From Clostridia bacterium (lineage in GTDB: Bacteria > Bacillota > Clostridia > TANB77 > UBA1234), in contig JAFWVJ010000020.1 of the NCBI GenBank assembly GCA_017518295.1, positions 131,320 to 195,319 on the forward strand: DNA of 64,000 nt. Reading direction: 5' to 3'. The first letter of the stretch is position 1; every line of letters starts with the position of its first letter. Of this stretch, positions 19,714 through 50,899 are shown in pieces. Made by a program: the position numbers and the translations under genes. Under the pieces are notes generated by a model. The model made no database searches. It saw nothing but the letters and a program-made list of their open reading frames with translations, and was not told where the DNA came from.

Positions 19714-19719
19714 TACGTA

Positions 19720-21128: not shown

Positions 21129-21199
21129 AGGTTGAACTTTACATAATATTGTGATATACTTTTATGTGGTATGTAAATATTTCATAGGAGGATGAACAA

Positions 21200-21697
21200 A
21201 TGGGCAATCCTATATTTCAGCTTAAAATTGCTGAGCTCAAGCAGCAAGTAGAAGATGATATCCATGATCTTGAGCTTGAGACCCCTGAATACGATACTAA
21301 TGGAAGGAGACGGAACATCTATAAGGCGTTTGAATATGCTAAGAAGTTACGGGAATTTCTCGAGTTAGAATACTTTAATGGAGGTATTTATCGTTGTGTA
21401 GGAGACATTGTTGGTAACATCAAATTCTGGGCAAAAGACTCTGAAGAGCGTATTGAACGGAATAAGAACAAGATCGAAGAAATCAAGAAAGTCAAGAAAT
21501 TGAAAGGACAGATTTCTTTGTTCGACAAGTATTCTTTAAGTGATGAAGATATGAAAAGGGCTATAGATGAGCCTGATTTATTCTTGAAAGAACTTAAAGA
21601 AGAGAATATCCAACTGGAAAAAGATAAGAAGTTGGCAAGATTTGTGCTGGCATATCTTATGCATCGTAACCAAATATTGACTGCAATTTATGAATGA
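21200..21697 (+). CDS. hypothetical protein (first gene of a compositionally atypical 2-gene cassette)
   Basis: GGAGGA RBS. Charged, coiled-coil-rich 165 aa. Codon usage is visibly GC-richer than neighbours. Its stop overlaps the next start (ATGA). Confidence 0.5.
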   Translation: MGNPIFQLKIAELKQQVEDDIHDLELETPEYDTNGRRRNIYKAFEYAKKLREFLELEYFNGGIYRCVGDIVGNIKFWAKDSEERIERNKNKIEEIKKVKKLKGQISLFDKYSLSDEDMKRAIDEPDLFLKELKEENIQLEKDKKLARFVLAYLMHRNQILTAIYE

Positions 21698-22239
21698 CGG
21701 AGGTAAATATTATGCTAAACATGTCAGTAAATCAAATGCGGGATTTCCTGATCGGAAAGATTCGTGAAACCTGCAAGACCAAGAACCTCTATGAAGAAGA
21801 GAGGGAAAAGAGAGCAGATGTGCTTCGTGATATCGTACAAAGTGAGCTTTTTGCTTATATGTACGATCGTCACGATACCAGATGGCTTCTGGAGCAGGCC
21901 AAAATCACCCGTTCGGAAGCTTTGCGCTACTTAAGCCTTAATTCTATGCGTATTGAGAGCACTCGAAAGAGTTATCTGATGACGCAAGACCAGATTCGGG
22001 CTCTTAACAGTTCGTTGAAAGCATACAATTCAATGAATGTTTCGAGTCATGACTTCGTTGAGCGTGAAGTTCGGGAAGCCAAGGAAGAGCTGAGTGAAGA
22101 AATAAGGCAGGCTGAAGTTCGAGCTGAGCAATATGGAAAATTGTTGAAAGAGGCAGAATATCAGGAACGGCTGCAGTATGTGATGCACCGTTTGGAAGGG
22201 ATCATCGTAGATCCTGAATATTTTGCATACCTGAAGTAA
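21694..22239 (+). CDS. hypothetical protein (second gene of the cassette)
   Basis: 181-aa helical/charged protein. GC-richer codons (ctggagcaggcc, cgtttggaagggatc). Followed by a strong terminator. Confidence 0.5.
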   Translation: MTEVNIMLNMSVNQMRDFLIGKIRETCKTKNLYEEEREKRADVLRDIVQSELFAYMYDRHDTRWLLEQAKITRSEALRYLSLNSMRIESTRKSYLMTQDQIRALNSSLKAYNSMNVSSHDFVEREVREAKEELSEEIRQAEVRAEQYGKLLKEAEYQERLQYVMHRLEGIIVDPEYFAYLK

Positions 22240-29803: not shown

Positions 29804-29896
29804 GCAAAGGTTACATAATTGAAAAGGCGCATATTTTGTGGTAAAATAATAGTGTAGTAGCTATGTAGAAATTTAATGTAATATGGAGGTGATATT

Positions 29897-30604
29897 ATGA
29901 CTAATTGGAAAGAAAAAATGGAAAGAGGTTATAATATCGCTGGTCATAATATGAGAAATTCAGAAGGCTCAAAAGAAGCTGCTGAAAAAGTTTTTGAAGA
30001 AGGATTGATTATTGCTGATGGCAAAAAGTCTATTCGACATACTACAGTACAATTAGGTGATAAATATAGAAATAAAAGAATAAAAGAAGATATAAATAGA
30101 TTGTTAACGGAGTATGTTTATTCATTAACATCAGAAGGATATAATATTTTAGTAATGTCTCCTACTACTATTAAGAATAGTAGTGGAGAAGAGCTATTTT
30201 TAGGTGACCCATATTTAGGTATAAAAGAAAGCGATTTTGCAACCGATGGACAAGAGTATAAAGCACTAAGTATTTTAGATTTAGCTTGTAGTCAGATGGG
30301 AAAGATTCCACCAGAGTTTATTTATGGCTATGTAAATATTCATGAAGGAAAGATTGTAGAAAATCCAAATCATTACTCTCATAACCAAGAAAAAATGGAT
30401 GACCTATTTGATAAAATTAAATCAAGTTTAAATAGTGTTCAAATAGAAGTAAGTGGAGCACTTGCTAAAGGTGACAAAACAAAAATAGCATATTTAAAAA
30501 AATTATTTGAAACATATGCTATGACAGAAATGAATGAAATAATTGAAAAAGCAGAAAAAGAATACTTAGAAAAAGATGTTAATATAGATCAAGATGAAAT
30601 ATAA
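29897..30604 (+). CDS. hypothetical protein
   Basis: 235-aa ORF with GGAGGTG RBS. No recognisable motif. Confidence 0.5.
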   Translation: MTNWKEKMERGYNIAGHNMRNSEGSKEAAEKVFEEGLIIADGKKSIRHTTVQLGDKYRNKRIKEDINRLLTEYVYSLTSEGYNILVMSPTTIKNSSGEELFLGDPYLGIKESDFATDGQEYKALSILDLACSQMGKIPPEFIYGYVNIHEGKIVENPNHYSHNQEKMDDLFDKIKSSLNSVQIEVSGALAKGDKTKIAYLKKLFETYAMTEMNEIIEKAEKEYLEKDVNIDQDEI

Positions 30605-36407: not shown

Positions 36408-36420
36408 AAATTTATGTAAA
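36408..36420. promoter_or_regulatory. AAATTTACATAAAA-family motif (reverse orientation: AAATTTATGTAAA)
   Basis: Recurrent motif. See findings. Confidence 0.5.
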
Positions 36421-36501
36421 CGCGTACTTCCGTAGGGTTTAGGGACAAAAAGCCACGAAACCCTTGATAAATACGAGAAAACTAAATGTAAAAAGTTTGC
36501 T

Positions 36502-36516
36502 AAATTTACATAAAAA
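36502..36516. promoter_or_regulatory. AAATTTACATAAAAA motif upstream of SLH gene A
   Basis: Exact motif instance. Confidence 0.5.
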
Positions 36517-36553
36517 GGTTGAAAAACAGGCCAAAATGTGTTAACATAAATAA

Positions 36554-36570
36554 TGTAAATTTTACAAAAC
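36554..36570. promoter_or_regulatory. ATGTAAATTTTACAAAA (motif-related dyad) upstream of SLH gene A
   Basis: Contains the TGTAAATTT / TTTACA half sites. Confidence 0.4.
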
Positions 36571-36620
36571 GCATATTATTAAAGAAAAAATAATAAGAAA
36601 CGAAAGAGGAGGAAGATATT

Positions 36621-39600
36621 ATGACAAATACTATGAAAAGAAGTATTATTTCGATTTTTGTTTTAGTTTTAGTTTTCTGCATGAGTGCAGTTGCTTTTGC
36701 TGATGACTATAACGGACAAGAAATATTCAACTTGACAGCTACTTACAATGGAAAAACATTAAAGAATGGTGAAACCATTAAAGTTTATTCCACATCACCT
36801 AGAACAGTTTCAATAGATACTAATCCAAAATATGTAGATAACACATTAGTTGTTGGCTATTGTTGGGATGGTGGCAATTGGAATGATACAACTGGTAAAA
36901 AATCAATTTCATTTACACTTCCAAATTTTGCTAATGGATCAACACATACTCTAGATATGGAAGGTTATATTGAACATAATAAAAACTTACCAGAAGGTGA
37001 CCCTGAAAGATATGTAGGAAATACAAACTTTGTAACAGTTTATTTTAAATTTGAAGAAACAACTCGTGAAATTAATTTAAAAGATGGAAGCAAAACAATT
37101 GCACATCAAGCAACAATTCAAAAACAACCTGGTGATACTCTTACTTTAGTTGGAACATCAAATATTGGAATTAATAAAATTCAATATATTTGGAATGGAA
37201 ATTCAAGTGATGTTAAAACAATCAATGGAGAATCAGGAACAATTACAGTTCCAAATATGGCAGAAGGTCAAAAGATTACTTTAGAAGCAGTTTGCCAATC
37301 AAAAGATAATAACTGGTCTTCTAGTAAAACATACTATATTCAAAGACCTGCAGCTAATGAAACAGTTACACTTTCACTTTCAGATACAGGTAGTAACGTA
37401 AAAGCTACTCCAACTGTAACTAATGGTACATTTGATCATTATGAATATCATTGGGATAGTGATGTAACCTCAACTCAAACAAGTAGTACATTTGGTTATC
37501 CAGTTGCAACTGGAAAACATATATTATATGTAAAAGCAGTTACTAAGAATGGTGTAAAATCTGCTGAAAAGAGTGTAACAGTAAATGTTGCTGAAGCAGA
37601 ATCATTAACATTATCTTTAAAAGATACAGGAAGCAATATTAAAGCAACTGCAACTGTAACTAATGGTACATTGGATCATTTCCAATATCATTGGGATAGT
37701 GATATTAGTTCAAATCAAACAAGTGATACATTTGGTTATCCAGTAGCAACTGGATCACATACATTATATGTAAGAGCAGTTTCTAAGAAAGGAAATATGT
37801 CTCCAGAAAAGAGCATAACAGTTAATGTAGCTGCTCCAGAAACTGTAACAGTATCTTTACAAGATAAAGGTACATATGTAAAAGCAACACCAACAGTTCA
37901 AAATGGTACATTTGATCATTTTGAATATCATTGGGATAATGATGCTAGTTCAAATCAAACAAGCGATCAATTTGGATATCCAGTAGCAACTGGACAACAC
38001 ATTTTATATGTAAAAGCAGTTACTAAAAAAGGAACAAAATCTGCTGAGAAAAATATAACAATTAATGTTAAAGAAGAGGAAGTAACAGGAACAATTTCTG
38101 CTTCAGTTCCTTCAGGAGCATTAAGTGAAACACAAAGCAAACCAACTAGTGTTGAACCTGGAACAGAAATCACAGTTAAATTTAATCCAGAATCTAACTT
38201 TACTAAATTTGAATATAACTGGGATGATGGTGCATTCCAAAACTTACCTTCAAATAAAAAGATTTCAATTCCAAACTTTGAACCTGGTACAACACATAAA
38301 TTAACAATTAGAGGAACATTAAAGAATGGAAATATAGTAACAAAGATTTACTATATTACAATTCCAAAGAAAACATTAGAAGGACAAGTTGATGCAAAAT
38401 TAAACAATAAAACATTAACAAATGGATCAACAACTACTGTTGAAGGAAATGAATCTATTGATTTAGTTGGAACACCAACAGCAAATATTAAATCTTTAGT
38501 TTATTCTTGGGACAATGGTTCTGAACAAACAGTAAATGGTGCTTCAGCAAAAACTAATGTAGTTGCAAAACAAGGTGAGACACATACTTTAAAAGTTAAA
38601 GCAATTTTAACAGATAATACAGAAACATCATCTAAATCATATAAATTTGTTTTAAGCGGTGAGATGGAAGATGGTGGAGAATTAGATATAGATCCATGGA
38701 TGAGAGAAAATGATGATGCAGAAGGATTATTAGTTGCTCTTAGAAATAGATCTGATGAAGATAAAGCAAATAAAAACTTCTATATGATTGATGAAGAAGT
38801 TATTTACTTAGTAGATTATATGAATGCTGGAAAAGATATTAGTGAAGAAGTTAAACTTGTATTAAATATCCCACTTTCATTCAAGATTGTAAGCAGCGAT
38901 GGTGGTGTAGTTGATAATGATAAGAAAACAATTACTTGGACATTCCCAAATGGAGTTAAAGAAAAAGCTGCAGATACAAAAGAAGTAAGACTTAAATATA
39001 CAGCTTTATCTAAGAAGACATTAAAGAGTGAAATGATTTATCCACAAGCAGTAATTTATAAGAAAACAAAAGCAATGGATTATTCAGCAGTTATTAATTG
39101 CATCTATTTAGATGAAGATACAAAATTTAGTGATACTCATGAACCATATATGTATGGTGACCTTGAAGCTCCAACATTTAGACCTGATGAAGGTATATCT
39201 AGAGCTGAGGGTGCTATGGTTCTATTAAGAATCTTTGGTGAAAACTATACAAATGTTAAGACAATTACTACAAAATATAGTGATATTGAAGATACATACT
39301 ATGTAGCTAGACAAGCTATTACAAAAGCAACTCAATTAAATATCATGTCAGGATATCCAGATGGTTCATTTAAACCAAATGGTAAGATGACAAGAGCTGA
39401 GTTCATGAGAGTTATTGCAAGCTATGTTGCAGAAAGTGCAGATAAGAAAGGCTTAGAACTAAAAGATACAGATGCACTTGTAATTTATAAGAATACAAGT
39501 AATAAGAACCATTGGTCAAATCCATATGTAACATTACTTGCTAGATTAAATATGACAAATGCATCAAGCAAGGAGAAAGATCTAAGAGTAGATGAAACAA

Positions 39601-39791
39601 TAACAAGAGCTGAGGTAGCTCAACTATGTAATTTCTATCTATTCAGAGCTCCTGCCAAAGTAACTTCTAGCACAAATATGCAATTTACAGATGTTAATAG
39701 AAGCCATAAATTAATTGGAGATATTGTTGAAGCAACGAGAGAATCTCATTCATATATGGTAACATCTGATGGCAAAGAAGTAATTAAATAA
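36621..39791 (+). CDS. S-layer-type surface protein A: signal peptide, N-terminal conserved domain, three tandem ~80-aa Ig-like repeats plus further beta repeats, conserved C-terminal module with three SLH domains
   Basis: Signal peptide MKRSIISIFVLVLVFCMSAVAFA. The repeat …HWDSDxxSxQTSxTFGYPVATGxHxLYVxAVxKxG… occurs 3 times. C-terminal FRPDEGISRAEGAMVLLRIFG…, FKPNGKMTRAEFMRVIASYV… and ITRAEVAQLCNFYLFRA are SLH motifs. Strong RBS GAGGAGG. Confidence 0.8.
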   Translation: MTNTMKRSIISIFVLVLVFCMSAVAFADDYNGQEIFNLTATYNGKTLKNGETIKVYSTSPRTVSIDTNPKYVDNTLVVGYCWDGGNWNDTTGKKSISFTLPNFANGSTHTLDMEGYIEHNKNLPEGDPERYVGNTNFVTVYFKFEETTREINLKDGSKTIAHQATIQKQPGDTLTLVGTSNIGINKIQYIWNGNSSDVKTINGESGTITVPNMAEGQKITLEAVCQSKDNNWSSSKTYYIQRPAANETVTLSLSDTGSNVKATPTVTNGTFDHYEYHWDSDVTSTQTSSTFGYPVATGKHILYVKAVTKNGVKSAEKSVTVNVAEAESLTLSLKDTGSNIKATATVTNGTLDHFQYHWDSDISSNQTSDTFGYPVATGSHTLYVRAVSKKGNMSPEKSITVNVAAPETVTVSLQDKGTYVKATPTVQNGTFDHFEYHWDNDASSNQTSDQFGYPVATGQHILYVKAVTKKGTKSAEKNITINVKEEEVTGTISASVPSGALSETQSKPTSVEPGTEITVKFNPESNFTKFEYNWDDGAFQNLPSNKKISIPNFEPGTTHKLTIRGTLKNGNIVTKIYYITIPKKTLEGQVDAKLNNKTLTNGSTTTVEGNESIDLVGTPTANIKSLVYSWDNGSEQTVNGASAKTNVVAKQGETHTLKVKAILTDNTETSSKSYKFVLSGEMEDGGELDIDPWMRENDDAEGLLVALRNRSDEDKANKNFYMIDEEVIYLVDYMNAGKDISEEVKLVLNIPLSFKIVSSDGGVVDNDKKTITWTFPNGVKEKAADTKEVRLKYTALSKKTLKSEMIYPQAVIYKKTKAMDYSAVINCIYLDEDTKFSDTHEPYMYGDLEAPTFRPDEGISRAEGAMVLLRIFGENYTNVKTITTKYSDIEDTYYVARQAITKATQLNIMSGYPDGSFKPNGKMTRAEFMRVIASYVAESADKKGLELKDTDALVIYKNTSNKNHWSNPYVTLLARLNMTNASSKEKDLRVDETITRAEVAQLCNFYLFRAPAKVTSSTNMQFTDVNRSHKLIGDIVEATRESHSYMVTSDGKEVIK
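37360..38080 (+). repeat. three tandem ~240-bp coding repeats inside SLH gene A
   Basis: Protein repeats ETVTLSLSDTGSNVKATPTVTNGTFDHYEYHWDSD…, ESLTLSLKDTGSNIKATATVTNGTLDHFQYHWDSD… and ETVTVSLQDKGTYVKATPTVQNGTFDHFEYHWDND…. Confidence 0.8.
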
Positions 39792-39798
39792 CATACTA

Positions 39799-39828
39799 AA
39801 AAAGAGGTAGGAAACTACCTCTTTTTTG
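39799..39828 (+). terminator. rho-independent terminator
   Basis: AAAGAGGTAGGAAACTACCTCTTT hairpin plus a T-run. Confidence 0.75.
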
Positions 39829-39894
39829 CGCCTTTTTTGGCCCAAAAACCTATAAATAGAGAAGATCTAAAAAACATAAAAAAAATTTAAATAA

Positions 39895-39937
39895 GTTTAC
39901 ATAAAGTATTGATTTTTTATTGGGAATATATTATAAT
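39895..39937 (+). promoter_or_regulatory. promoter of SLH gene B: GTTTACATAAAG motif immediately upstream of TTGATT-17-TATAAT
   Basis: Motif at 39895-39906, -35 at 39909-39914 and -10 at 39932-39937, all read directly from the sequence. Confidence 0.55.
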
Positions 39938-39994
39938 ATTAACAGTCGGGTGCGAAAAAGCACAAAAGTTAAAACTATAGGAGGTTTTTAAAAT

Positions 39995-41926
39995 ATGAGT
40001 AACGTAAGAAGAAAGATTTCATTAGGTTTAGTTATGTTACTAGTTGTTATGGCTATTTCCGTAGCTTTTGCAGATGATTATAACGGAAAAGAAATATTCA
40101 ACTTAACAGCTACATTAGGTGGCAAAACATTAAAGAATGGTGAAACAGTTGAAATATCACCTGATTCATCTAGAACAATTAATATTACAACAAATCCAAA
40201 GTATGTAGATAATACTTTAGTAATAGGATATGCTTGGGATGGTGGAGAATGGAATGATGCAACAGGAAGTGCTACAAGATCATTTACTATTCCAAATTTT
40301 GCTACTGGTACTCAACACCATGTAGATATGGAAGCATATATTGAACACAATAAAGATTTACCAGAAGGTAGTGCAGACAGATATGTTGGTAACTCAAACT
40401 TTGTAACAGTTTATTTTAACTTTGTTGATAAGGTTGCTACTAACGTAGAAGTAAATGTTAAAGATGGAAACACAACTCTTGCTCACAAATCAACAGTAGA
40501 AAAAGAACCAGGAACAACTTTAACAGCTACTGGTTCAACAAATGTTGGAACAATTGATAAATTCCAATACATTTGGGATGGAAACAAAAATGATGTTAAG
40601 ACAATTAATGGTTCTACAGGAACAATTACAATTCCAAACGGAGAAGCAGGAAAAACAAAAACACTTGAAATTACTGCACATTCAACAGATGGAGTTTGGT
40701 CTCCAAGCAAAACATATTATATTAAACTTAAATCAACAAAACCAATTGATGATGAATTAATCATTGAAGATTGGATGAAAGAAAACAAAGATATCGAAGC
40801 ATTAGCAGTTTCTTTAAGAAACGATAGCGATGAATATGAAAAATCTAACAAAAATATGTACGCTTTAAAAGAAGAAGTTGTTTACTATGTAGATTACAAA
40901 AATGGTGGAAAAGATATTAATAACGAAGTTAAACTAGTTCTTGAATTACCACTTGATTTTGATGTAGTAGATGCTTTTGGCGGAACAGTAGACAAAGAAA
41001 AGAAGACAATTACATGGACATGGCCTGATGGATTAGAAAAAGGACAATCAGGAACAAAAGTAGTTAAGATTAAATATGTTGCACTTAGCAAATCAAGCAA
41101 AAAATCTGAAACTATTTACCCAGTAGCAAAGATTTATGTTTCAAACTCTAAGACACCAAAGGATACATCAGCTGTTATCAATTTAATTTTCAAAGATGAA
41201 GATACAGAAATTGCTGATGAACATTATCCATACATGATTGGTGACTTAATGGAAGATAAATCTATTACACCAACATTTAGACCAGATGAAAGCATTTCTA
41301 GAGCAGAAGGTGCTTTAGTTCTTGCAAGAATTTTTGGTATTAACTATACAGGTACACAAGTTGCTGGAAATGAATTTTCAGATCTTAAAGATACTTATTT
41401 ATCAGCACAACAAGCTATCGTTGCAAGTTCTAAGATGGGCTTAATTTCTGGTTTCCCAGATGGCACATATAGACCAAACGATAAGATGACAAAAGCTCAA
41501 TTTATGAGAATTATAGCAAGCTATGTAGAAGTTAGAGCTGAAGAAGATGATGTTAAAGGATTAGAAATCAAAGAAGATGATATGGCAATTAAAGTTTATA
41601 AAAATCCTACAAATGTTTATATGACAGGTTCTACATCTACAACAAATCATTGGGCAATTCCATATGTTACATTACTAGTAAGAATTAATATGACTCCAGT
41701 TACAAGCTCACACAAAGATTTAGGATTAGATGAAGAAATTACAAGAGCAGAAGTTGCTCAATTAGTAAACTTCTTCTTATTTAGAGCACCAGCTGAAGAA
41801 GGAAAAGTTCAATTTAGTGATGTTTCAAAGAATCACAAATTATATAGAGATATACTTGAAGCTACAATGCCTGCTCATTCATACACATTAACACATGAAG
41901 GCACAGAAGTTAGAGTAGATGACTAA
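39995..41926 (+). CDS. S-layer-type surface protein B (paralog of A; shorter repeat cassette; three C-terminal SLH domains)
   Basis: N-terminal ~130 aa and C-terminal ~330 aa are highly similar to gene A (FADDYNG[QK]EIFNLTAT…KTLKNGET… / …FRPDE[GS]ISRAEGA[ML]VL[LA]RIFG…). Signal peptide present. Confidence 0.8.
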   Translation: MSNVRRKISLGLVMLLVVMAISVAFADDYNGKEIFNLTATLGGKTLKNGETVEISPDSSRTINITTNPKYVDNTLVIGYAWDGGEWNDATGSATRSFTIPNFATGTQHHVDMEAYIEHNKDLPEGSADRYVGNSNFVTVYFNFVDKVATNVEVNVKDGNTTLAHKSTVEKEPGTTLTATGSTNVGTIDKFQYIWDGNKNDVKTINGSTGTITIPNGEAGKTKTLEITAHSTDGVWSPSKTYYIKLKSTKPIDDELIIEDWMKENKDIEALAVSLRNDSDEYEKSNKNMYALKEEVVYYVDYKNGGKDINNEVKLVLELPLDFDVVDAFGGTVDKEKKTITWTWPDGLEKGQSGTKVVKIKYVALSKSSKKSETIYPVAKIYVSNSKTPKDTSAVINLIFKDEDTEIADEHYPYMIGDLMEDKSITPTFRPDESISRAEGALVLARIFGINYTGTQVAGNEFSDLKDTYLSAQQAIVASSKMGLISGFPDGTYRPNDKMTKAQFMRIIASYVEVRAEEDDVKGLEIKEDDMAIKVYKNPTNVYMTGSTSTTNHWAIPYVTLLVRINMTPVTSSHKDLGLDEEITRAEVAQLVNFFLFRAPAEEGKVQFSDVSKNHKLYRDILEATMPAHSYTLTHEGTEVRVDD

Positions 41927-41943
41927 TTTATAGTATAGAATAA

Positions 41944-41978
41944 TAAAACCCCGTATGCTTTTGCATACGGGGTTTTTG
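41944..41978. terminator. bidirectional rho-independent terminator
   Basis: AAAACCCCGTATGCTTTTGCATACGGGGTTTT lying between convergent genes. Confidence 0.8.
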
Positions 41979-41985
41979 TTGGGAT

Positions 41986-42936
41986 TCAACGATGACCAGT
42001 GCCGCTACCAGTGTTTCCGGTAGGAGAACGATGGCCGGTACCACTACCAGACTCAGTGTTCTGAGTGGTGGGAGTACGATGACCAGTGCCGCTACCAGAT
42101 TCGCTGGGCTGAGAGGTCCAACCAGTGAAGTTGTCTCCACCAGTCTGAGCATTTCCGTTGTCGGAGCCGCTCGTGGACTCGCTACCAGTGGGGGTACGAT
42201 GACCAGTGCCGGAACCCGTTTCCTCAGTGTGAGTGGGTTCACGATGACCGGTACCAGTACCAGTTTCTTCTTCAGGAGTAGTTTCTTCAACTACTTCTTC
42301 AGTAGGAACTTTTTCCTCAGGCTGGGTAGCCGTGGTCGGAGTATGGAGCACGGTCTGCTCCAGAAGTTCGAGACCATACACGCGCTCACCATCTTTGATG
42401 ATGAAGCTAACGCGAACGGCCCGGCCGCCAAGATTGCCTTCCAGGACAGTAGTCGTATGCTTGCGAGCATTACGATTCCAAATCCTGTGGCTCATCTGAC
42501 CTTCATAGCCTTTCTTGGTAGAAGCAAACAAAGTTGCATCGAAGCAGCTCTGAGCGTCCCCACCAAAAGCTTCGTAAGCTTCCTGGTCGAACCAGTAAGC
42601 ATTCACGAAGTTGTAAGACTTGAGATTACCAGCAGTGGTGAACCGGATTTTCCGATCCAATCTGTTGGTACCGAGGCAGTTAGCCGTGGCAGTAGAAGCT
42701 TTGACATAGGAAGACTTTTGCTTCATGTCAGCAGCTTCACTACGCTCGAGTTCAACCTTTTCAGTGAAGAATCCACCAAAGATTCTATCTTCACGGTTCT
42801 TTTTGGCAGCAAGTACTTCGATAGAAGTGTTTTCACACTTAATGCAGAAGTCTTCCGCCAGTGCGGTCGTAAAGCAAGCGAGAATCAGAGAAACCAGAAC
42901 CATGGAGATCTTGATGGTGTTACGAGCAGTATTCAT
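41986..42936 (-). CDS. GC-rich secreted repeat protein 1: signal peptide, ~200-aa N-domain, Thr/Pro/Glu linker, C-terminal (G)TGHR and GGDNFTGW repeats
   Basis: Start ATG at 42936 (MNTARNTIKISMVLVSLILACFTTALA) with AAAGGA RBS. The upstream in-frame extension in the ORF track lacks an RBS. Codon usage is far GC-richer than the surrounding genes. Confidence 0.65.
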   Translation of the reverse strand: MNTARNTIKISMVLVSLILACFTTALAEDFCIKCENTSIEVLAAKKNREDRIFGGFFTEKVELERSEAADMKQKSSYVKASTATANCLGTNRLDRKIRFTTAGNLKSYNFVNAYWFDQEAYEAFGGDAQSCFDATLFASTKKGYEGQMSHRIWNRNARKHTTTVLEGNLGGRAVRVSFIIKDGERVYGLELLEQTVLHTPTTATQPEEKVPTEEVVEETTPEEETGTGTGHREPTHTEETGSGTGHRTPTGSESTSGSDNGNAQTGGDNFTGWTSQPSESGSGTGHRTPTTQNTESGSGTGHRSPTGNTGSGTGHR

Positions 42937-43114
42937 TTTGACGATCCTTTCTTTTTTTGGCTCTTGGCCATAATTTTTTTCCCAACAAATGAGTGTATAT
43001 ACAATTGTATTCCACACAAAATAAGCTAAATGCAAATGCAAAATAGCTAGAAAATGTGGCTGTTGATTGTTTTCCACGTTTACAAATGTTGGTACTAAAC
43101 AATATTATATCACA

Positions 43115-43128
43115 AATTTACATAAAAG
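43115..43128. promoter_or_regulatory. AAATTTACATAAAAG motif; on the minus strand it reads TTTTATGTAAATTTGTGATATAAT, i.e. motif at -35 with an extended -10
   Basis: Directly upstream (minus strand) of GC-rich gene 1. Confidence 0.55.
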
Positions 43129-43151
43129 TCACTAAAATAGCCCAATTAAAG

Positions 43152-43190
43152 GCAAAAATAAGAGGCTTTGCACAATTGTGCAAAGCCTCA
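43152..43190 (-). terminator. rho-independent terminator of GC-rich gene 2
   Basis: GAGGCTTTGCACAATTGTGCAAAGCCTC hairpin with a T-run on the minus strand. Confidence 0.75.
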
Positions 43191-43211
43191 TGGAACTTCC
43201 TATAGATTAGA

Positions 43212-44396
43212 TTATGAACCCCAACCAGTGAAGTTATCTCCACCGGTCTGTCCGTTTCCGTTGTCCTGACCAGAAGTTTCAGGCGTGTTCTGGGGAGCGG
43301 CTTCTTCAGTAGAATGTCCACCGCGATGACCAGTTCCTTCGCCAGAGGCTTCAGGAGTGTTCTGCGGTGCAGCGGTCTCCTGAGTGGTAGGCCGATGACC
43401 AGTTCCTTCGCCAGAGGGTTCGGGAGTCTGCTGCGGAGCAGCAGTTTCCTGGGTGGTAGGCCGATGGCCAGTTCCAGTACCAGGATCAGTCGGTTCCGGA
43501 GCCCGGGTGGGCTGAGGAGTAGGCTGACTCGTGGGAACCGCAGTGGGTTCGGGAGTGGGCGCCTGAGTGGGCTGCGGGGTCGGTGCATTGGTCGGCTCAG
43601 CCGTAGGCACGGGCGTAGGAGCCTGTGTGGGCTGCGGCGTGGGGGCCGGCGTAGCAGTCGGTTCCGCAGTGGGTTCAGGAGTGGGTGTGGACGGAGGCCG
43701 ATGACCAGTTCCACCGGGGGTGGGGGTCGGAGTCGGCTCCTGGGTAGGAACGGGCGTCGGTTCCTGGGTAGGAACAGGCGTCGGTTCCGTTGTGGGTGCA
43801 GGGGTAGGTGCTACCGTGGGTTGGGGCGTGTTCTGCGGCTTGGAAGAACCACTGCCTTTTGTGCAGAGGGTCCACTCAAGATCCTGCCGAACATAAACGT
43901 TCCAGTACTGGTTGCTCTTTTTGCCCATCTGAAGCTTTACAACCGGCTTAAAAGTCGACTGATATTTCTCCAGATGAACAGAGGATGCATTGCGGTCAAT
44001 GGTCAGAATCCGTTCTACTACGACATCGCAGATATCCTGTTTTGTCAGAGAGGGAATCTGGTCCATTGGAATACCGGTCAGCTGTGAAAAAAGTTCCGCG
44101 TCAACGATTGAAGCATCAAGAATGTCAATCGTTGATTCCCAATCATGACCTAACTCAAGACCAACGTTCTTACCGGTAGAGCCGGTATAAAAACCATTGG
44201 CAGCATGTTTGGCCATGCTGGTCTGCTTTGTAACCTTGGTATTCTGAATTGTCCCGGTGAGGGGCGTACCAGCGACGACATCAAAGATGCCGCTTTTGCA
44301 TGCGGGAATCCGCATGGTTTCAGCCATCGCAGATGCGATGGAGAAAATAGAAACAATGATCCCAGTCAAGATAGCAATCCTCTTAGCCTTAGCCAC
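43212..44396 (-). CDS. GC-rich secreted repeat protein 2: signal peptide, N-domain, long PT-rich linker, (G)TGHR repeats, C-terminal [10 protein letters not shown]
   Basis: GTG start at 44396 ([25 protein letters not shown]) preceded by AAAGGAA. PT linker [23 protein letters not shown]…. TGHR occurs 5 times. Foreign codon usage. Confidence 0.65.
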
Positions 44397-44520
44397 TTTG
44401 TAATTCCTTTCTGGAGGCGTGTCGCATCTAGGCAACACTTGGTTATCATTAGACCCCCTACAATCATGGATAAAGAGAAAACCACCTGGTACCACATAAC
44501 CTATAAAAATCCCTTAAATG

Positions 44521-44613
44521 GGCATACCAATTGTTATTACCCAAATACGCGATCTTTAAACGCCGAAGCATAAAAAAGATCCACGAAAATGTGGAATAAC
44601 AATTGGTATACCC
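44521..44613 (-). promoter_or_regulatory. long inverted repeat (15-16-bp arms, ~55-nt loop) in the 5' leader of GC-rich gene 2
   Basis: cATACCAATTGTTATTa … gGAATAACAATTGGTATac. It lies between the candidate promoter motifs (44655-44690) and the start at 44396. Confidence 0.4.
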
Positions 44614-44654
44614 ACCATCGAGATTATTTAAGTTAGCATATTTATTATACAATA

Positions 44655-44690
44655 AATTTACATAAAATTCAATATATTTTACATAATTTT
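44655..44690. promoter_or_regulatory. two tandem motif copies AAATTTACATAAAATT / TTTTACATAATTTT in the divergent promoter region
   Basis: Exact instances in the 617-bp intergenic region between GC-rich gene 2 (-) and SLH gene C (+). Confidence 0.5.
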
Positions 44691-44882
44691 TGTTTATTTT
44701 TTACCTAATTTTTGCTTATATATAGCCAGTTTGACTTATAATAGGTTACTGTATTATTTAAACCAGATTTTGGAGAAAAAATAGAATAAAAAAGTAAAAA
44801 AATCACATCAAAATATTATAAGATTTTATAAAAAAATATGTTCAAAAAGTTGCTTTAAATTTATCCCAAAACTACGGATGAT

Positions 44883-44940
44883 AAAGTTACATAAAATTAT
44901 TACAAAAATATTACAAAAACTATTGCTTTTTTACATAATC
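44883..44940. promoter_or_regulatory. motif copies AAAGTTACATAAAATT and TTTTTTACATAATC upstream of SLH gene C
   Basis: Exact instances. Followed by TGATATTATGTG (extended -10-like). Confidence 0.5.
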
Positions 44941-45013
44941 CGTGATATTATGTGCAACGCACCCCTAGAAAAGGGGAAAACAGTAATAAGATAAGAAATT
45001 ATAGGAGGTTTTT

Positions 45014-47209
45014 TTGATTATGAGTAACTTAAAAGCAAAAGTTTCTTTATTCGTTGTGATGTTACTTATCGTAAGTGCTTTTTCAGTAGCATTTGCTGGT
45101 GACTATATTATGAACTTATCTGTATCATATAATGGTGAAACTCTACAAGATAGAGAATCAATCGAATTATATAATTCTGATAAAAATAGAACATTAACAA
45201 TCACAACAGACGCAAAGTACGTAGATGATTCTTTAACAATTTATTGGTCAAGAAGTGGTGGACCAGTATTTGAAAAGCTTTCTACAGGAAAGAAATCAGC
45301 TACATTCACAATTCCTGCTGACTTAACAGAAGGAAATGCAACACAATTCGTATTCGAAGCAGTTTCAAATGACTTCGGTAACAACTTCGTAGGTAATTCA
45401 AACGCAGTTCGTGTTTGGGTAAATTGTCCTAAGGAAGAAGACGTTAATGTAACAGCTAACTTAGAATACAATGGTAAAACAATTGAACACTTAGACACAA
45501 TTAGATGTGCTGAAGGCGACACACTTAGAATTGTTGGTAATTCAAACATTGGTGTTAAACTTGTTGCATACAAATGGGACAACGGTTCAATCGTTGAAAT
45601 TGATGGATCAAGTGCAAACATCAAAGTTCCAGCTTTAGGCGAAGGTAAAAAATTATCTATCGTAGCACAAGCTAAAGATGGTAAATGGTCAAATAGTAAA
45701 ACATTTACAGTTCTTCCAAAAGCTGAAGAAGATGAAACAACAATCGAAGCTTATTTAAGAAAAGATGGCGTTGTTGTTGAAAACAGAGCTACAATCGAAG
45801 TAGGTGAAGGAACAAAATTAGTTGTTTCTGGAACATCTAACAAAGGTGTTAAATTAGTATCATACAAATGGGGTAACGGAAACGTTGTTGAAATCAATGG
45901 TTCAAGTGCTACAATCCCAGTTCCAGCAGATTTAGGAGATGGATTAACACTTGGTATCACAGCTCAAGCTACTGATGGTAAATGGGCTAACAGCAAGACT
46001 TTCACAGTTAAAGCTGGATCTTCAGTAGAACCAATCGAACCAGAAGATGATGACGATGATGAATTAATCATTGAACCATGGATGAAAGAAAATGATGACT
46101 TAAATAAATTAGCAGTTTCTTTAAGAAGTGAACCATATGAAAACGAAGACAGAGCAAACAAAAACATTTATGCATTAAATGAAAAAGTTGTTTACTATGT
46201 TGATTACAAAAATGGTGGAAAGAAAACTGATAAAGAAGTTAAATTAGTTCTTGATTTACCTCTTGCTGCTACAGTTGTAAACAGCGATGGTGGTTCAGTA
46301 TCTAAGAAAGATGGAACAATCACTTGGACATTCAAGAATGGTTTAGATAAAGAAGAATCTGGAACAAAGACAGTAGTTGTTAAGTACACATCTTTAGGTA
46401 GTTCAAAAGCTACATTTAAGAGAATTACTCCAAAAGCTACAATTTTCCAAGATGGTAAAAAGAAAGATTTATCAGCAGTTATTAACCTAATCGTTAAAGA
46501 TTTCGATGTTGAAATTAAAGACGAACATGATCCATATATGTATGGTGATTTAGGTACTGGTACATTCCGTCCAGATGATACAATCACAAGAGCTGAAGGT
46601 GCTTTAGTTCTTACAAGAATTTTTGGTATCTCTACTTCTAACGATAACAATACATATGATTTCCCTGATTTAAATGAAACATATGTATCAGCTAGAAGAG
46701 CTATTAGAGCTGCTAGAGCATATGGTCTTATCGAAGGATTCCCAGATGGAAATTACTATCCAAATAAGACAATGACAAGAGCTGAATTCATGACAATCAT
46801 CGCTCGTCAATTAGAAGAAGAAGAGGGCGACGGATTCGAAGTTAAAGAAGCTGACGATCTAATTAAGATTTATAAAGATAAAACAAAAGTATACTATCTA
46901 GACAACAATGAAACATATGATGCTCATTGGGCTGCTGGATATGCTACATTACTTTGCAGATTAAACATGGCTCCTGTATCTGAAAAGAATACAAACTTAA
47001 GACTTGATCAACCTATTTCAAGAGCTGAAGTTGCTCAATTAGTAAACTTCTACTTATTAAGAGCTCCAGCTGAAGTAACAAAATCAACAAAGATTGGATT
47101 CCCAGATGTTAATAGAAACCATAAATTAATCGGTGATATCGTTGAAGCTACAAGAGCTTCTCACACATGGTCTCTAAATGAAGATGGAGAAGAAGTTGAA
47201 GAAGATTAA
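45014..47209 (+). CDS. S-layer-type surface protein C (paralog; three ~95-aa tandem Ig-like repeats; three C-terminal SLH domains)
   Basis: Signal peptide. Repeats …Y(K)WDNG(S)xVEIxGSSAxIxVPAxxGxGxxLxIxAQAxDGKWxNSKTFTV occur 3 times. C-terminal module and SLH motifs are shared with genes A and B. RBS AGGAGG. Confidence 0.8.
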   Translation: MIMSNLKAKVSLFVVMLLIVSAFSVAFAGDYIMNLSVSYNGETLQDRESIELYNSDKNRTLTITTDAKYVDDSLTIYWSRSGGPVFEKLSTGKKSATFTIPADLTEGNATQFVFEAVSNDFGNNFVGNSNAVRVWVNCPKEEDVNVTANLEYNGKTIEHLDTIRCAEGDTLRIVGNSNIGVKLVAYKWDNGSIVEIDGSSANIKVPALGEGKKLSIVAQAKDGKWSNSKTFTVLPKAEEDETTIEAYLRKDGVVVENRATIEVGEGTKLVVSGTSNKGVKLVSYKWGNGNVVEINGSSATIPVPADLGDGLTLGITAQATDGKWANSKTFTVKAGSSVEPIEPEDDDDDELIIEPWMKENDDLNKLAVSLRSEPYENEDRANKNIYALNEKVVYYVDYKNGGKKTDKEVKLVLDLPLAATVVNSDGGSVSKKDGTITWTFKNGLDKEESGTKTVVVKYTSLGSSKATFKRITPKATIFQDGKKKDLSAVINLIVKDFDVEIKDEHDPYMYGDLGTGTFRPDDTITRAEGALVLTRIFGISTSNDNNTYDFPDLNETYVSARRAIRAARAYGLIEGFPDGNYYPNKTMTRAEFMTIIARQLEEEEGDGFEVKEADDLIKIYKDKTKVYYLDNNETYDAHWAAGYATLLCRLNMAPVSEKNTNLRLDQPISRAEVAQLVNFYLLRAPAEVTKSTKIGFPDVNRNHKLIGDIVEATRASHTWSLNEDGEEVEED

Positions 47210-47243
47210 AATAATCAAATAAGATTATTCTATAGTTTTAATG

Positions 47244-47282
47244 CAAAAAGCTACAAGTATTTATACTTGTAGCTTTTTGTTT
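47244..47282 (+). terminator. rho-independent terminator
   Basis: AAAAGCTACAAGTATTTATACTTGTAGCTTTTT. Confidence 0.8.
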
Positions 47283-47294
47283 TGTAAAAAATCG

Positions 47295-47350
47295 TAATGG
47301 CGACCAGTGGTCGCCGATACAAAACCATACCGGCGAGCATTGCTCGCCAT
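47295..47350. repeat. two REP-like palindromic units
   Basis: gtaatggcgaccagtggtcgccgatac and ccggcgagcattgctcgccat. Confidence 0.75.
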
Positions 47351-47359
47351 TTTTAATGC

Positions 47360-47397
47360 AAAAAAAATCCCCACGGAGCAAAGTGCTCCATGGGGGT
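47360..47397 (-). terminator. rho-independent terminator of GC-rich gene 3
   Basis: CCCCACGGAGCAAAGTGCTCCATGGGGG with a T8 run on the minus strand. Confidence 0.8.
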
Positions 47398-47417
47398 CGG
47401 TCAGAAAGGTTAAAAGC

Positions 47418-49019
47418 TTACAGGGGATTGTCTCCATATCCACCGTCGCCATTATCAAGCGGATTCTGCTCATGCGGGATGTCTGCAACTTCTTCTACAG
47501 TTTTGTTTCCTTCGTCAGGAAGTGACTGAGGTGCAGCAGCCTGTGGTTGAGCTTGAGGTTCTGCTTGAGGCTGAGCCTGAGGTGCGGCTTTTGGAGCTGC
47601 AGCAGATTCCTGAGGTGAAGTTTCCGGAACAGCTTGGGGAGTGGCGGCCTTTGAAGTCTCGGGCTTGGCTTGCGGAGTTGCACTGCCACTAGACGATCCT
47701 AAGGGATTACCATTGCCACCGCTAGAGCTTGATCCAGAACTACTTTCGGAACTGCTACTGGACGAACCTAAGGGGTTTCCGCCGGTGTTTCCACCACTGC
47801 TTCCACTGGAACTCGAGCCACTTTCAGCACCGCCGTTGTTATTTCCAGCAAGCGGATTTCCGCCGTAACCACCATCGGTGTTGCTCGGCGGATCAACATG
47901 CAGGTCTTCAAGCGGGTTCGAACCATGACCACCATCATCGTTGCTTCCGGGCTTTTCGGCTTCAGGAGTTACCTTCGGAGTAGCAACAGGCTGAACATCC
48001 AAATCCTCGAGAGGATTGTCACCATAGCCACCATCGTCGTTATCACCAGGCCGTTCCGGTTCCGGCGTTACCACAGGTGTAGCTGTGGGTTTGTTAGTCG
48101 GCGTCGGAGTGGGGTCAGGCGTCACTACCGGTGTTGCAGTCGGCGTGGGTGTCGGCGTATTGGTAGGCGTCGGTGTCGGTGTCGGCGTATTGGTAGGCGT
48201 TGGGGTTGGCGTGGGTGTATTGGTGGGAGTCGGAGTCGGCGTGGGTGTCGGACCACCAGTCGGAGTCGGTGTAGGCGTCGGCGTAGGTCCACCAGTCGGC
48301 GTGGGCGTCGGCGTAGGTGTAGGTTCATCAGTCGGCGTCGGCGTATTCGTCGGACCAGGTGTCGGCGTCGGTGTTACTTCGGGGCCACAACCTGCTTTCC
48401 AGCAAAGCGTGAGCTCTTCAGTCTCCAGGTTATAGAAAACACCCAAGTAATCTTCAGGATTATCAGAGTGGAAATACTTGGCTACGAGTACATGCCTAGA
48501 AACATCATACTGCTGTACTTCGTGGCTTACGTATTCAGTACTATCCACAGTGATGAGCGTGTAATCAATGAGGGGGCGAGCCCACATAGTATCATACGCT
48601 CTGATGTAGTCCTGAATTTCAACAGGAAGTTGTGTAAAAGCTGTAGTTACCTCAATGTCTTTAAAAAGTACTGTTGACCGATAAAGATATACAACTTGGT
48701 TCACTCCGCCAGGATGAGGAATTGTTTTGGCGCCAGGAACGAAGTCGTATTCGGCATCTTGTACCAGGAATCCATACTTGAAACCGTGGATTGCCGGAGA
48801 AGAACCGATAAGGTCTGCAGATTCAACGAAAGTACCAGGGTCACCAGACTCTTTGTCGTAGGCGTAAACATAGCCATTGGAATTCACGTAGAGTTCTACG
48901 TACAAATCTTCCAGGGGGGGAAGAATGTCGTTACCCTGCGCTTCGGCAATAGCGGTGAATGCGAACAAACCACATACCGCTACCACCAAGGACAAAAAGA
49001 TGCCAAGAAACCTTTTCAT
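47418..49019 (-). CDS. GC-rich secreted repeat protein 3: signal peptide, ~190-aa N-domain, long PTPTPT linker, GG[YH]G[DSG]NPL repeats, Ser/Gly-rich and AQPQ low-complexity tail
   Basis: ATG at 49019 ([27 protein letters not shown]) with AAAGGAGG RBS. (TPTP)n linker of ~110 aa. DGGYGDNPL-type motif occurs 6 times. Ends …DGGYGDNPL. Foreign GC-rich codon usage. Confidence 0.65.
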
Positions 49020-49377
49020 TCTGGTATTCCTCCTTTGGTTTGTCGGTTTTTTTATTTTTTGCTTTAACCTTTTCTGAGTGGGAAAGTAATTACAATTACC
49101 CACTATAAAGTGGACAATGGATCTTGCCTTGACAAGACGCAAATCCACCTCGCCGTGGATTTGTAAAAAACTTCTCCACGCTCAATCTATTAAAGCATAG
49201 CAATTATACAATGTATTAACATAATTTTCAACACTTTTTTGAAAAAAATTAAACAATTTTTTCGCTTTTCCGTAAGGTTTTTTGGCATTTTTAAAATCAA
49301 CAAAAATTTACGTTTGAAATATAGTTGTAACACAATTGTAAAAAATGATAAAAAGGACATTTTTTTTGATTTTTAAG

Positions 49378-49483: not shown

Positions 49484-50899
49484 TTACGTTTTTGGCTGGC
49501 TTTTTTTTTTGCCACGAGTAGAAGTAGTTTGCGGCTTTTTATCGCCTTCCAAAATAGCCATAACTTCTTCTTTGTAGAGAGTTTCTTTTTTGATAAGTTG
49601 TTCAGCAATAGCAATAAGTTTATCCTTATGCTCAAGCACAATTTCAGTTGCTTTAGATTCAAGTTCTATAAGCATCTCTTGAATTTTGCCATCTGCAATT
49701 GAATTAAGATACTCACTAGGAAGTACTTCTTCTTGCAAACAGATAGGTCCAAAAGTTCTATCCATGCCAAAATACTTAACATAGCTTTCGGCCAGAGTAG
49801 TGGCATTTGAAAGATCAGAAGATACACCAGATGTGTTTGTATTAAACATTATCTGTTCAGCAACCTTGCCGCCCAGGCAATGAATAATACGACCTTTAAT
49901 ATCTTCACGAGTATAAGAAAGTTTGTCTTCATCAGTTTCAGGATCAGTAAGACCCAAAGACTGAGGTCTAAATACAACTTCAACTTTACTTACTTTATAG
50001 TCAGTAGAACCATAGTAACCAGCAATAACGTGGCCTGCTTCATGGTAGGCAGTAAGACGCATTTCTTTTTCTGACATTTTGCGAATCTTATTACCAAAAG
50101 TCTCAGAATAAATCGTTGCATTAATGATTTCATAGGTGAGCTTCGGCTTGTTTTCGAGAAGACAAGAAATCCATGCCTTGTTCAAAATATCTGCAATATC
50201 GCCACCGCTGCAACCGATAAAATCACGAGCAACTTTATTAAAGTCCAAGTTTTCATCATAAGGAATATTTGCAATAAACTTTTTAATCAGCTTTTCACGA
50301 TCTTTCGGATCAGGAGAGTTGAAAGAAACTTTATTATTAAAGCCTTCAGCTCCAAAGAAAAATTGCGGATAAAAAGCAAACTGAGAAGCTGATGCAAAGA
50401 AGAAAGAACGCGGGAATGAATTCTTAATCTGACAAATCTTTGAAAGGAAAGAAGTCATCTTGCCTTCGTCAAGCATATTAGAATAATTGACATCTTTAAA
50501 AAGTACAACGCACTTATCAAACTGTGCAATAACACCTTTGAGTCCATTAACAATCTTAATTGAAAAATCCTGCAAAAGTTTTTCACTGTCAATAACGACA
50601 ATTGGAAGGTTCATTTCTTTGGCAAAAGAATAAACAGTAAGAGCCTTACCAATGCCGGAAACACCCAAAAGAAGGAAACTTGGATGATATGATCCGAGTC
50701 CTTTAATAGGCCGTTTTCTTTTTAAAAGTCTAACCATGTTTGAAAAATATTTAACAATATTAGTATTACCAATAATATCCTTAAAGAAGTTGTCATTATC
50801 TTGCGGTAGTAAAGTTTTGACTTGAATCTTTTCGACAACTTCTTCAACGCTATAAGTTTGCGTGCTCAGAAGTTCTTTAATCCGGGGAGTCTGTTTCAT
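49484..50899 (-). CDS. cytosolic FtsH-like protein: AAA+ module with degenerate Walker A/B plus M41 peptidase domain with intact HEAGH
   Basis: Start ATG 50899 (MKQTPRIKELL…) with GGAGGTG RBS. No TM segments. GVSGIGKA in place of GPPGTGKT. LFKDVN in place of IDEID. …TAYHEAGHVIAGYY… and …GCSGGDIADILNKAWI… are collinear with FtsH. Lys-rich C-terminus crosses a T10 homopolymer at 49501-49510. Confidence 0.7.
   Translation of the reverse strand: MKQTPRIKELLSTQTYSVEEVVEKIQVKTLLPQDNDNFFKDIIGNTNIVKYFSNMVRLLKRKRPIKGLGSYHPSFLLLGVSGIGKALTVYSFAKEMNLPIVVIDSEKLLQDFSIKIVNGLKGVIAQFDKCVVLFKDVNYSNMLDEGKMTSFLSKICQIKNSFPRSFFFASASQFAFYPQFFFGAEGFNNKVSFNSPDPKDREKLIKKFIANIPYDENLDFNKVARDFIGCSGGDIADILNKAWISCLLENKPKLTYEIINATIYSETFGNKIRKMSEKEMRLTAYHEAGHVIAGYYGSTDYKVSKVEVVFRPQSLGLTDPETDEDKLSYTREDIKGRIIHCLGGKVAEQIMFNTNTSGVSSDLSNATTLAESYVKYFGMDRTFGPICLQEEVLPSEYLNSIADGKIQEMLIELESKATEIVLEHKDKLIAIAEQLIKKETLYKEEVMAILEGDKKPQTTSTRGKKKSQPKT

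Follow-up and report, generated by a model that had tools for sequence, protein, structure and literature searches.

S-layer and other surface proteins shape the encounters of gut bacteria with their host, with phages and with other microbes. In the sap/eag S-layer switch of Bacillus anthracis, alternative S-layer genes are controlled at the promoter level, and we know of no shared 9-bp operator of the kind presented below described for that system. To our knowledge, almost nothing is known of S-layer regulation in uncultured Clostridia. The global regulator CodY recognises a 15-bp palindrome, AATTTTCWGAAAATT, with mismatches that are scattered among individual sites. The stretch of DNA analysed here, 64,000 nucleotides long and termed the window throughout (contig JAFWVJ010000020.1, positions 131,320 to 195,319, assembly GCA_017518295.1), belongs to a metagenome-assembled genome (MAG) of an uncultured "Clostridia bacterium" and contains an island of surface-protein genes with a recurrent short motif, TT[T/A/G]ACATAA, at its promoters. 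Its sequence context makes the motif a candidate operator of one sequence-specific, clade-specific DNA-binding regulator of uncultured gut and rumen Clostridia, a reading to which a probability of about 65% is assigned.

Motif core and its copies in the window

The window has a GC content of ~30%, its sequence recurs in more than 20 metagenome contigs, and its proteins in NCBI include MBR3281452 and MBR3281459. The surface-gene cluster is flanked by polC/HPF/DUF1294 on one side and by rpoB on the other, and comprises six motif target genes:

36621-39791, plus strand: SLH1056, SLH-domain surface protein
39995-41926, plus strand: SLH643, SLH-domain surface protein
41986-42936, minus strand: Pro/Thr-rich repeat protein with signal peptide, no family match
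43212-44495 (start uncertain), minus strand: Pro/Thr-rich repeat protein with signal peptide, no family match
45014-47209, plus strand: SLH731, SLH-domain surface protein
47418-49019, minus strand: Pro/Thr-rich repeat protein with signal peptide, no family match

SLH1056, SLH643 and SLH731 are paralogues. The three Pro/Thr-rich secreted proteins combine Pro/Thr-rich linkers with repeated "GTGHR" or "GGxGxNPL" units, and the repeats raise the local GC content of their genes to 40-52%, against 30% for the genome. Different gene callers assign 334, 394 or 427 residues to the 43212 gene from the same DNA, so that its start (44495 or about 44396) is uncertain.

A preliminary description of this DNA had reported a motif of ~14 bp. 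The recurrence is real, but the conserved unit is a 9-bp core, TT[T/A/G]ACATAA, whose commonest form is TTTACATAA; the variable third base follows from the SLH643 promoters of two related loci, of which L009 carries TTAACATAA and L006 carries TTGACATAA. The core is an imperfect palindrome (TTTA-CA-TAAA) with A at base 10 in only 12 of 28 sites, and the dimeric site proposed earlier is only weakly indicated. The copies in the window are:

36412-36420, minus strand: exact TTTACATAA, in the divergent intergenic region between DUF1294/HPF (minus) and SLH1056 (plus), ~93 bp upstream of the 36505 copy
36505-36513, plus strand: exact TTTACATAA (14-mer 36502-36515), centre at about -45 of the SLH1056 promoter
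36541-36549, plus strand: variant TTAACATAA, over the -10 of the SLH1056 (36621 gene) promoter; same layout in the L011 orthologue (6944)
36551-36559, minus strand: one-mismatch TTTACATTA, over the predicted SLH1056 transcription start
39896-39904, plus strand: exact TTTACATAA, centre at -44 of the SLH643 promoter; kept in nine orthologous promoters
43117-43125, plus strand: exact TTTACATAA, in the spacer, centre at -24, opposite orientation, minus-strand promoter of the 41986-42936 gene
44657-44665, plus strand: exact TTTACATAA, in the spacer, centre at -24, opposite orientation, minus-strand promoter of the 43212-44396/44495 gene
44678-44686, plus strand: exact TTTACATAA, at -45 of the 43212 gene promoter, 21 bp from the 44657 copy; unit 1 of a 22-bp tandem repeat
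44700-44708, plus strand: one-mismatch TTTACCTAA, at about -67 of the 43212 gene promoter, 22 bp beyond the 44678 copy; unit 2 of the tandem repeat
44886-44894, plus strand: one-mismatch GTTACATAA, upstream of the SLH731 promoter, followed by two TTACAAAAA units 11 bp apart
44930-44938, plus strand: exact TTTACATAA, in the spacer, centre at -24, same orientation, SLH731 promoter; same layout in the L011 orthologue
49216-49224, plus strand: variant TTAACATAA, in the spacer, centre at -24, opposite orientation, minus-strand promoter of the 47418-49019 gene
21138-21146, plus strand: exact TTTACATAA, in the spacer, centre at -25, promoter TTGAAC-17-TGaTATACT of the 21200-22239 genes
29810-29818, plus strand: GTTACATAA, abutting the -35 (TTGAAA, 29819-29824) of the promoter of a cytoplasmic gene of unassigned function, 29897-30604

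The predicted plus-strand promoters of the island consist of TTGAAA (36519-36524), a 17-bp spacer and TGtTAACAT (36539-36547) for SLH1056, TTGATT (39909-39914), a 17-bp spacer and TATAAT (39932-39937) for SLH643, and TTGCTT (44923-44928), a 17-bp spacer and TGaTATTAT ending at 44951 for SLH731. On the minus strand, the predicted -35 and -10 boxes lie at 43127-43132 and 43104-43109 for the 41986-42936 gene, at 44667-44672 and 44644-44649 for the 43212 gene, and at 49226-49231 and 49203-49208 for the 47418-49019 gene. Transcription is predicted to begin near 36554, 39944 and 44958 on the plus strand and near 43097, 44637 and 49196 on the minus strand. The divergent region at 44.5-45.0 kb holds five copies, and spacings in multi-copy arrays are 21-22 bp and 11-13 bp. 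Copies 36505 and 36551 bracket the SLH1056 core promoter as a 16-nt inverted repeat (36496-36511 and 36553-36568) with 41 nt between its arms.

Ten of the eleven copies listed earlier are present as described, including a related one ahead of a two-gene cassette, which has the exact core, and one directly upstream of TTGATT-17-TATAAT at 39909. The copy said to occupy the -35 position at 43100 instead lies in the -35/-10 spacer, at -28 to -20. The eleventh, at 49305-49322 (TTTACGTTT), was rejected: it has three mismatches, lacks a conserved counterpart and is separated by ~115 bp from the nearest predicted promoter downstream. Copies 49216, 36541, 44700 and 29810 had been overlooked, and the first of these is the real copy for the promoter to which the rejected one had been attached.

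Phased A-tracts of TTACAAAAA units with a 10-13-bp period were also observed upstream of SLH731-type and some SLH643-type promoters (window 44897-44920; L011 about 9860-9890; L014 5660-5720; L015 11020-11050), and in L014 and L015 they stand in place of exact motif copies. These units could be degenerate sites or intrinsically bent DNA.

Abundance of the motif against chance

The window contains eight copies of TTTACATAA where 2.95 are expected. All eight are intergenic, although intergenic DNA makes up 13% of the window (p about 8e-8), and seven fall within the 2 kb of intergenic DNA of the island at 36-49.5 kb (p about 3e-4). Among the 630 orderings of T4A4C1, TTTACATAA ranks first in the intergenic DNA of the window, with 8 occurrences against a mean of 0.54 (sd 0.83). 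For the 14-mer, matches with up to one mismatch are significant in the window (4 against 0.57 expected; 0/100 shuffles), and those with up to two mismatches are not significant alone (13 against 7.7 expected). No copy was found in the promoter-less convergent intergenic regions of the island, 41927-41985 and 47210-47417. The motif is real and well above chance.

Position and orientation relative to promoters

For each intergenic site, the best sigma-A-type promoter (TTGnnn, a spacer of 16-18 bp and [TGn]TAnnnT) within 70 bp was identified. A strong promoter was present at 39 of 43 sites, compared with 33% of random intergenic positions. The motif centre lies at -23 to -25 in 19 of these 39 sites (2.6% at random; p = 4e-20), with 14 of the 19 spacer sites exactly at -24, and at -43 to -46 in nine (2.8% at random; p = 1e-6); three further sites are placed at -52 to -55. 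Upstream sites end 4-5 bp before the -35, and in L006, L009 and L010 the upstream site is displaced outwards by ~10 bp, about one helical turn, to -53 to -56, which puts positions -24, -44.5 and -55 on one face of the helix. The motif is thus in register with sigma-A-type promoters and confined to one helix face. Sites at -24 span -28 to -20, the only part of the 17-bp spacer clear of the -35 and the TG/-10 region. In one tabulation of these sites, seven are oriented with the promoter and ten against it, and orientation differs even among positionally equivalent genes of different species. The use of both orientations at one position argues against a sigma -35/-10 element, as do the several positions relative to sigma-A-type boxes, and the earlier view that the motif is not a sigma-factor element was upheld.

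Conservation in relatives and association with gene classes

A protein-guided scan recovered eleven loci in further MAGs of uncultured Clostridia (human, rabbit, deer, sheep and rumen), cited here by L numbers, which share the order polC - DUF1294 - HPF - SLH genes and encode SLH proteins 41-55% identical to the query. Counts of k-mers covered ten of the eleven, one near-duplicate being omitted and the window excluded. In these loci, TTACATAA is the commonest non-low-complexity intergenic 8-mer (27 of 34 copies intergenic) and TTTACATAA the top 9-mer (19 of 20 copies intergenic). The latter again ranks first of 630 permutations in intergenic DNA, with 19 occurrences against a mean of 1.45 (sd 1.9), slightly above the extended -10 sequence TGATATAAT. 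When nine orthologous SLH643 promoters were aligned, the conserved blocks corresponded to an A-tract, the motif, the -35, the TGn-10, a 5' hairpin and the ribosome-binding site, while the flanks of the motif are not conserved. Five contigs of the same species are 99.99-100% identical to the window and thus hold no single-nucleotide polymorphism information on strain-level constraint.

Position tracks gene class across species. The upstream site belongs to SLH643 and SLH1056 orthologues, the spacer site to the Pro/Thr-rich surface genes and SLH731. In a crude and biased comparison, restricted to genes of the window and the relatives for which a strong promoter is predicted, the motif occurred at -70 to -15 in 22 of 40 genes with a signal- or transmembrane-like N-terminus and in 2 of 23 others (p = 3e-4). 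The proposed co-ordination of S-layer and associated genes agrees with this association with secreted or SLH proteins, but two non-surface promoters of the window also carry the motif (21138 and 29810), ahead of two hydrophilic, non-secreted proteins without Pfam match (21200-22239) and of the gene at 29897-30604. Likewise, the statement that all cell-surface genes carry the motif is true of the six in the 36-49.5 kb island and not of the window as a whole: it is absent from the transglutaminase-SLH gene at 9032 and its orthologues, from the gene for an Ig-like protein of 1056 residues at 59747 and from the gene at 58701. It is also absent from the strong housekeeping promoters of the window (rpoB, infC-rplT and polC) and from other strong promoters.

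Around the 29810 copy, nearly the same AAGGTTACATAATTGAAA promoter, with a 17-bp spacer and TAAAAT/TATAAT, is found in the window (29805-29847) and in L011 (530-575), ahead of two non-homologous genes of unassigned function (235 and 222 residues) at the same place just upstream of polC. It appears to be a conserved promoter before a replaceable gene.

In four relatives, a candidate non-coding RNA of ~230-260 nt lies between prfB and polC, behind a strong promoter with the motif at -23:

L010 3760-3986, L016 3740-3998, L008 1075-1311 and L007 3040-3295 (strand: -): candidate non-coding RNA, conserved in four relatives

It displays an invariant GAGGAGAAGATTC, a micro-ORF of 6-7 codons behind a ribosome-binding site, a terminator hairpin at its end and compensatory changes in 18 of 44 predicted pairs. 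No Rfam match was obtained for it, and it is absent from the window.

Comparison with known types of site

The motif lacks the canonical architecture of PadR, LytTR, UP-element, alternative-sigma, GlnR/TnrA, WalR/PhoP and NrtR sites. PadR-type operators follow ATGT-N8-ACAT; the motif provides ACAT, and ATGT is absent 8 nt upstream at 36505 and 39896. LytTR regulators (AgrA/ComE/VirR) bind pairs of 9-bp direct repeats 12-13 bp apart, upstream of the -35. Here, spacings of 21-22 bp occur only at 44657/44678/44700, most sites are single and many lie in the spacer. UP elements, the sites of alpha-CTD, are A/T-tracts at -38 to -59 without base-specific C or G and occur only upstream of the -35; the motif has an invariant ACA core and half of its sites are in the spacer at -24, and a separate A-tract is present upstream of it in SLH643 promoters. 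An alternative sigma element would keep a fixed orientation and a fixed distance to its partner element and to the transcription start. The motif takes both orientations at -24 and, measured from good sigma-A -35/-10 pairs, lies at -24, -44.5 and -55.

The GlnR/TnrA consensus is an inverted repeat, TGTNA-N7-TNACA (PMC4888889), of which TNACA fits and the TGTNA 7 nt upstream is absent at 36505, 39896 and 44657. Sites of the WalR/VicR or PhoP type consist of two hexamers (TGTWAH-N5-TGTWAH, or repeats of TT[A/T/C]ACA) in direct repeat, 11 bp apart from start to start (PMC4888889). One hexamer fits such a site; of 44 motif copies, only seven have a second hexamer with at least 5/6 bases at -11, and one has it at +11. 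The NrtR operator, located ahead of NAD salvage genes, is a 21-bp palindrome built around GT-N7-AC (PMC2330246), and the motif is a 9-mer without such a palindrome. The end of an NrtR-like gene lies 7 nt ahead of the 29810 copy; the order of pnuC, an ORF of 192 residues without family match and the NrtR-like gene in the window resembles the nadR-pnuC-nrtR NAD-salvage cluster (PMC2330246), and the S-layer loci of relatives showed no neighbouring homologue of the NrtR-like gene.

Scanning metagenomes for the -24 arrangement (TTGAHWNTTWACATAANNNNTGNTAWAAT) returned at least 120 unrelated contigs, whose GC content ranges over 22-56% and whose downstream genes are unrelated. Among viral contigs, this arrangement occurred 14 times with the real core and 16, 8 and 6 times with permuted cores, so that there is no enrichment outside the clade and the motif is not a general feature of Firmicute promoters. 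As the real core is no commoner than permuted ones, these metagenome hits reflect chance and are uninformative on the regulon. Literature text searches for the motif string gave incidental matches only.

Regulator model and alternative explanations

The comparisons above show a motif that, as far as sequence can tell, is conserved, orientation-independent, gene-specific and restricted to this clade, and they support a gene-specific cis-regulatory site, neither a compositional artefact nor a sigma-factor element. Its fixed promoter positions at nearly all surface genes, in this genome and in relatives, make a regulator docking site the most likely function. Several points weigh against the single-regulator operator. 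No regulator gene was detected beside the locus, among the window genes or in the flanks of the relatives' loci (Pfam, NCBIfam and PHROGs), except for the NrtR-like NAD regulator. SLH genes served as the anchor for fetching the relatives, so that the association with gene class is biased, and many sites lie in paralogous or orthologous promoters, so that independent origins are fewer than the counts suggest. The survey of this genome covered the 64-kb window, and all promoters are consensus predictions. Finally, the tight -24 register could betray an element that polymerase, or a factor bound to it, recognises, although the same register could also arise from fitting a 9-mer into the room between the -35 and the TRTG/-10 region.

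That last point leads to the main rival, which is nevertheless unlikely: a lineage-specific core-promoter element, read by RNA polymerase or an accessory factor bound to it and marking strong surface-protein promoters, in the manner of an UP element at -45 or of a fixed-register spacer box like the MotA box of phage T4. Such an element would account for the very tight register of the spacer sites, for the restriction of every position to one helical face and for a motif that equals the extended -10 in frequency across the clade's intergenic DNA, and S-layer promoters are expected to be very strong. It fits poorly with both orientations at -24, with the motif-free rpoB, infC-rplT and polC promoters and with an invariant C/ACA core that differs from the A/T-tract UP consensus; generic promoters elsewhere show no enrichment over permuted controls, and no single polymerase contact can explain a 9-mer at -24, -44.5, -55, -9 and +1. 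Slightly less credit is given to a known global regulator of slightly shifted specificity, most plausibly CodY, which would link the surface coat to nutrient status. The earlier dismissal of CodY was not safe, since the window's best matches to the CodY consensus are motif copies (13/15 at 44655 and 12/15 at 43115 and 44884), and CodY represses from core-promoter sites and activates from upstream ones. Yet every copy deviates from its consensus at the same two central positions (A at position 6 and T at position 9) and the mismatches are not scattered, which points to a different specificity. Furthermore, the flanking bases needed for a full 15-mer show only a weak A/T bias, the canonical TTTTCWGAAAA occurs in none of the intergenic regions of the window, and the symmetry is unlike, an even 10-bp core as opposed to an odd 15-bp box.

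It is improbable that the copies are half-sites for a WalR- or PhoP-type response regulator (OmpR/PhoB family), a type that controls cell-wall genes in other Firmicutes. The reverse complement of the motif does hold TGTAAA or TGTTAA, in agreement with TGTWAH and with the variable third base as W, direct repeats recur every 11 or 21-22 bp in some arrays, and cell-envelope genes are a fitting target class. The scarcity of second hexamers is at odds with this assignment, as are the conserved TAA after the hexamer, which lies outside both consensuses, and the use of the same promoter position in both orientations. A disfavoured explanation, with a very small share of the probability, denies the motif any dedicated function and takes its copies as remnants of promoter duplication among paralogous SLH and Pro/Thr-rich genes, augmented by AT-rich chance matches to a -35 (TTTACA) or a -10 (CATAAT). 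Both gene groups are indeed paralogue families and near-consensus hexamers do lie inside the motif, but the 9-mer alone is kept while its flanks diverged, position is kept while orientation flips, non-homologous promoters (21138, 29810 and the non-coding RNA of four relatives) share it, and it ranks first among 630 permutations. Hardly any weight at all is left for inverted copies acting as arms of invertible promoter segments in surface-protein phase variation. Surface genes are typical targets of inversion, both orientations occur within one intergenic region and an inverted pair surrounds the SLH1056 core promoter; the hallmarks of an inverton, namely long repeats, both orientations in the population and a recombinase, are however missing, with arms of only 10-16 nt lying 41-84 nt apart, a single copy at most promoters, no recombinase gene nearby and no inverted variant among five independent metagenome assemblies of the species that are 99.99-100% identical.

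If the motif is the operator of one regulator, a protein bound at -24 would compete with RNA polymerase and block the core promoter, leading to repression of the Pro/Thr-rich genes, SLH731, the two-gene cassette and the small non-coding RNA of relatives. The same protein at -44/-45 or at -52 to -55 of SLH643 and SLH1056 orthologues could contact polymerase and activate transcription. Alternatively, upstream sites may serve co-operative repression, together with the SLH1056 copies at -9 and +1 or through the 21-22-bp arrays of the 43212 gene. Overall, alternative surface-coat proteins would come under co-ordinated and possibly reciprocal control, as is suggested by the conserved split between main S-layer and Pro/Thr-rich genes; the sign of regulation is a guess. 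A more elaborate version, which is tentative and rather doubtful, envisages a coat-switch regulon not described before, in which a single clade-specific factor turns S-layer genes on from -44.5/-55 and the Pro/Thr-rich, mucin-like genes and the small RNA off from -24, or the reverse, or else a -24 box that is a new spacer promoter element read by a polymerase-associated factor. Overall, the interpretation given in the preliminary description is partly supported.

The motif offers a testable handle, a 9-bp site that recurs, across a family-level clade, in six or more promoters of each genome and at defined positions. It may be used to capture the regulator by DNA affinity, to trace it through phylogenetic profiles of MAGs, and to delineate the regulon by motif scanning. 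The split between upstream and spacer sites predicts reciprocal regulation, which can be checked in metatranscriptomes.

Other features of the locus

The predicted leaders of all three Pro/Thr-rich genes are 144-177 nt long or more and contain GTGGA...TCCAC hairpins. In the 5' leader of the 43212-44495 gene (44490-44642, minus strand), a very stable hairpin (-61.5 kcal/mol, z = -9.2) has 25-nt arms at 44519-44543 and 44590-44614. A short GTG...CAC hairpin at the predicted 5' end of the SLH643 mRNA (39938-39994) is kept in all relatives and could be an mRNA-stabilising stem-loop of the kind known for S-layer transcripts.

Between the island and rpoB, the window encodes an FtsH-like protein (49484-50899, minus strand; Peptidase_M41 and a weak AAA match, called at 471 residues), which occupies the same position in L011 and L015. 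The transglutaminase-SLH gene forms a pair with a HAD hydrolase gene (9032-11612, plus strand) 25 kb from the island; in L007, L009, L010 and L016 this pair directly follows the S-layer cluster, suggesting a rearrangement. A full-length OLE (ornate large extremophilic) RNA (392 bits) is located at 19707-20303 on the plus strand in its usual context, with nusB, xseA and a DUF212 gene upstream, and a CNNM/DUF21-type, OapA-like membrane protein is encoded downstream (20577-21128).

Relation to known regulatory systems

The motif is new within an uncultured lineage, whereas its probable kind, a transcription-factor operator, is familiar and not surprising in principle. With the sites of WalR, CcpA, CodY and the class I/II sites of CRP/FNR, regulators that activate or repress according to where their operator lies, it shares a short sequence placed, by gene class, upstream of the -35 or over the core promoter, with allowed upstream positions that differ by whole helical turns (here -44.5 and -55). 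In contrast with these systems, it matches no consensus in full, consists mostly of single 9-mers without an evident second half-site and has its spacer site at -24 +/- 1 in both orientations. The CodY box is likewise an AT-rich near-palindrome with sites over promoters, the conserved part here being only 9 bp. As in sap/eag, adjacent genes for alternative SLH-anchored surface proteins would be co-ordinated transcriptionally, although the organism, the proteins, with their Pro/Thr-rich partners, and the motif are unrelated to that switch. MerR-type and phage T4 MotA-type systems also place an element at fixed register between or beside the -35 and -10. However, MerR needs a spacer of 19-20 bp where the spacer here is the optimal 17 bp, and the MotA box replaces the -35, while in the surface-gene promoters described here a good -35 is kept and the element is found upstream of it as well.

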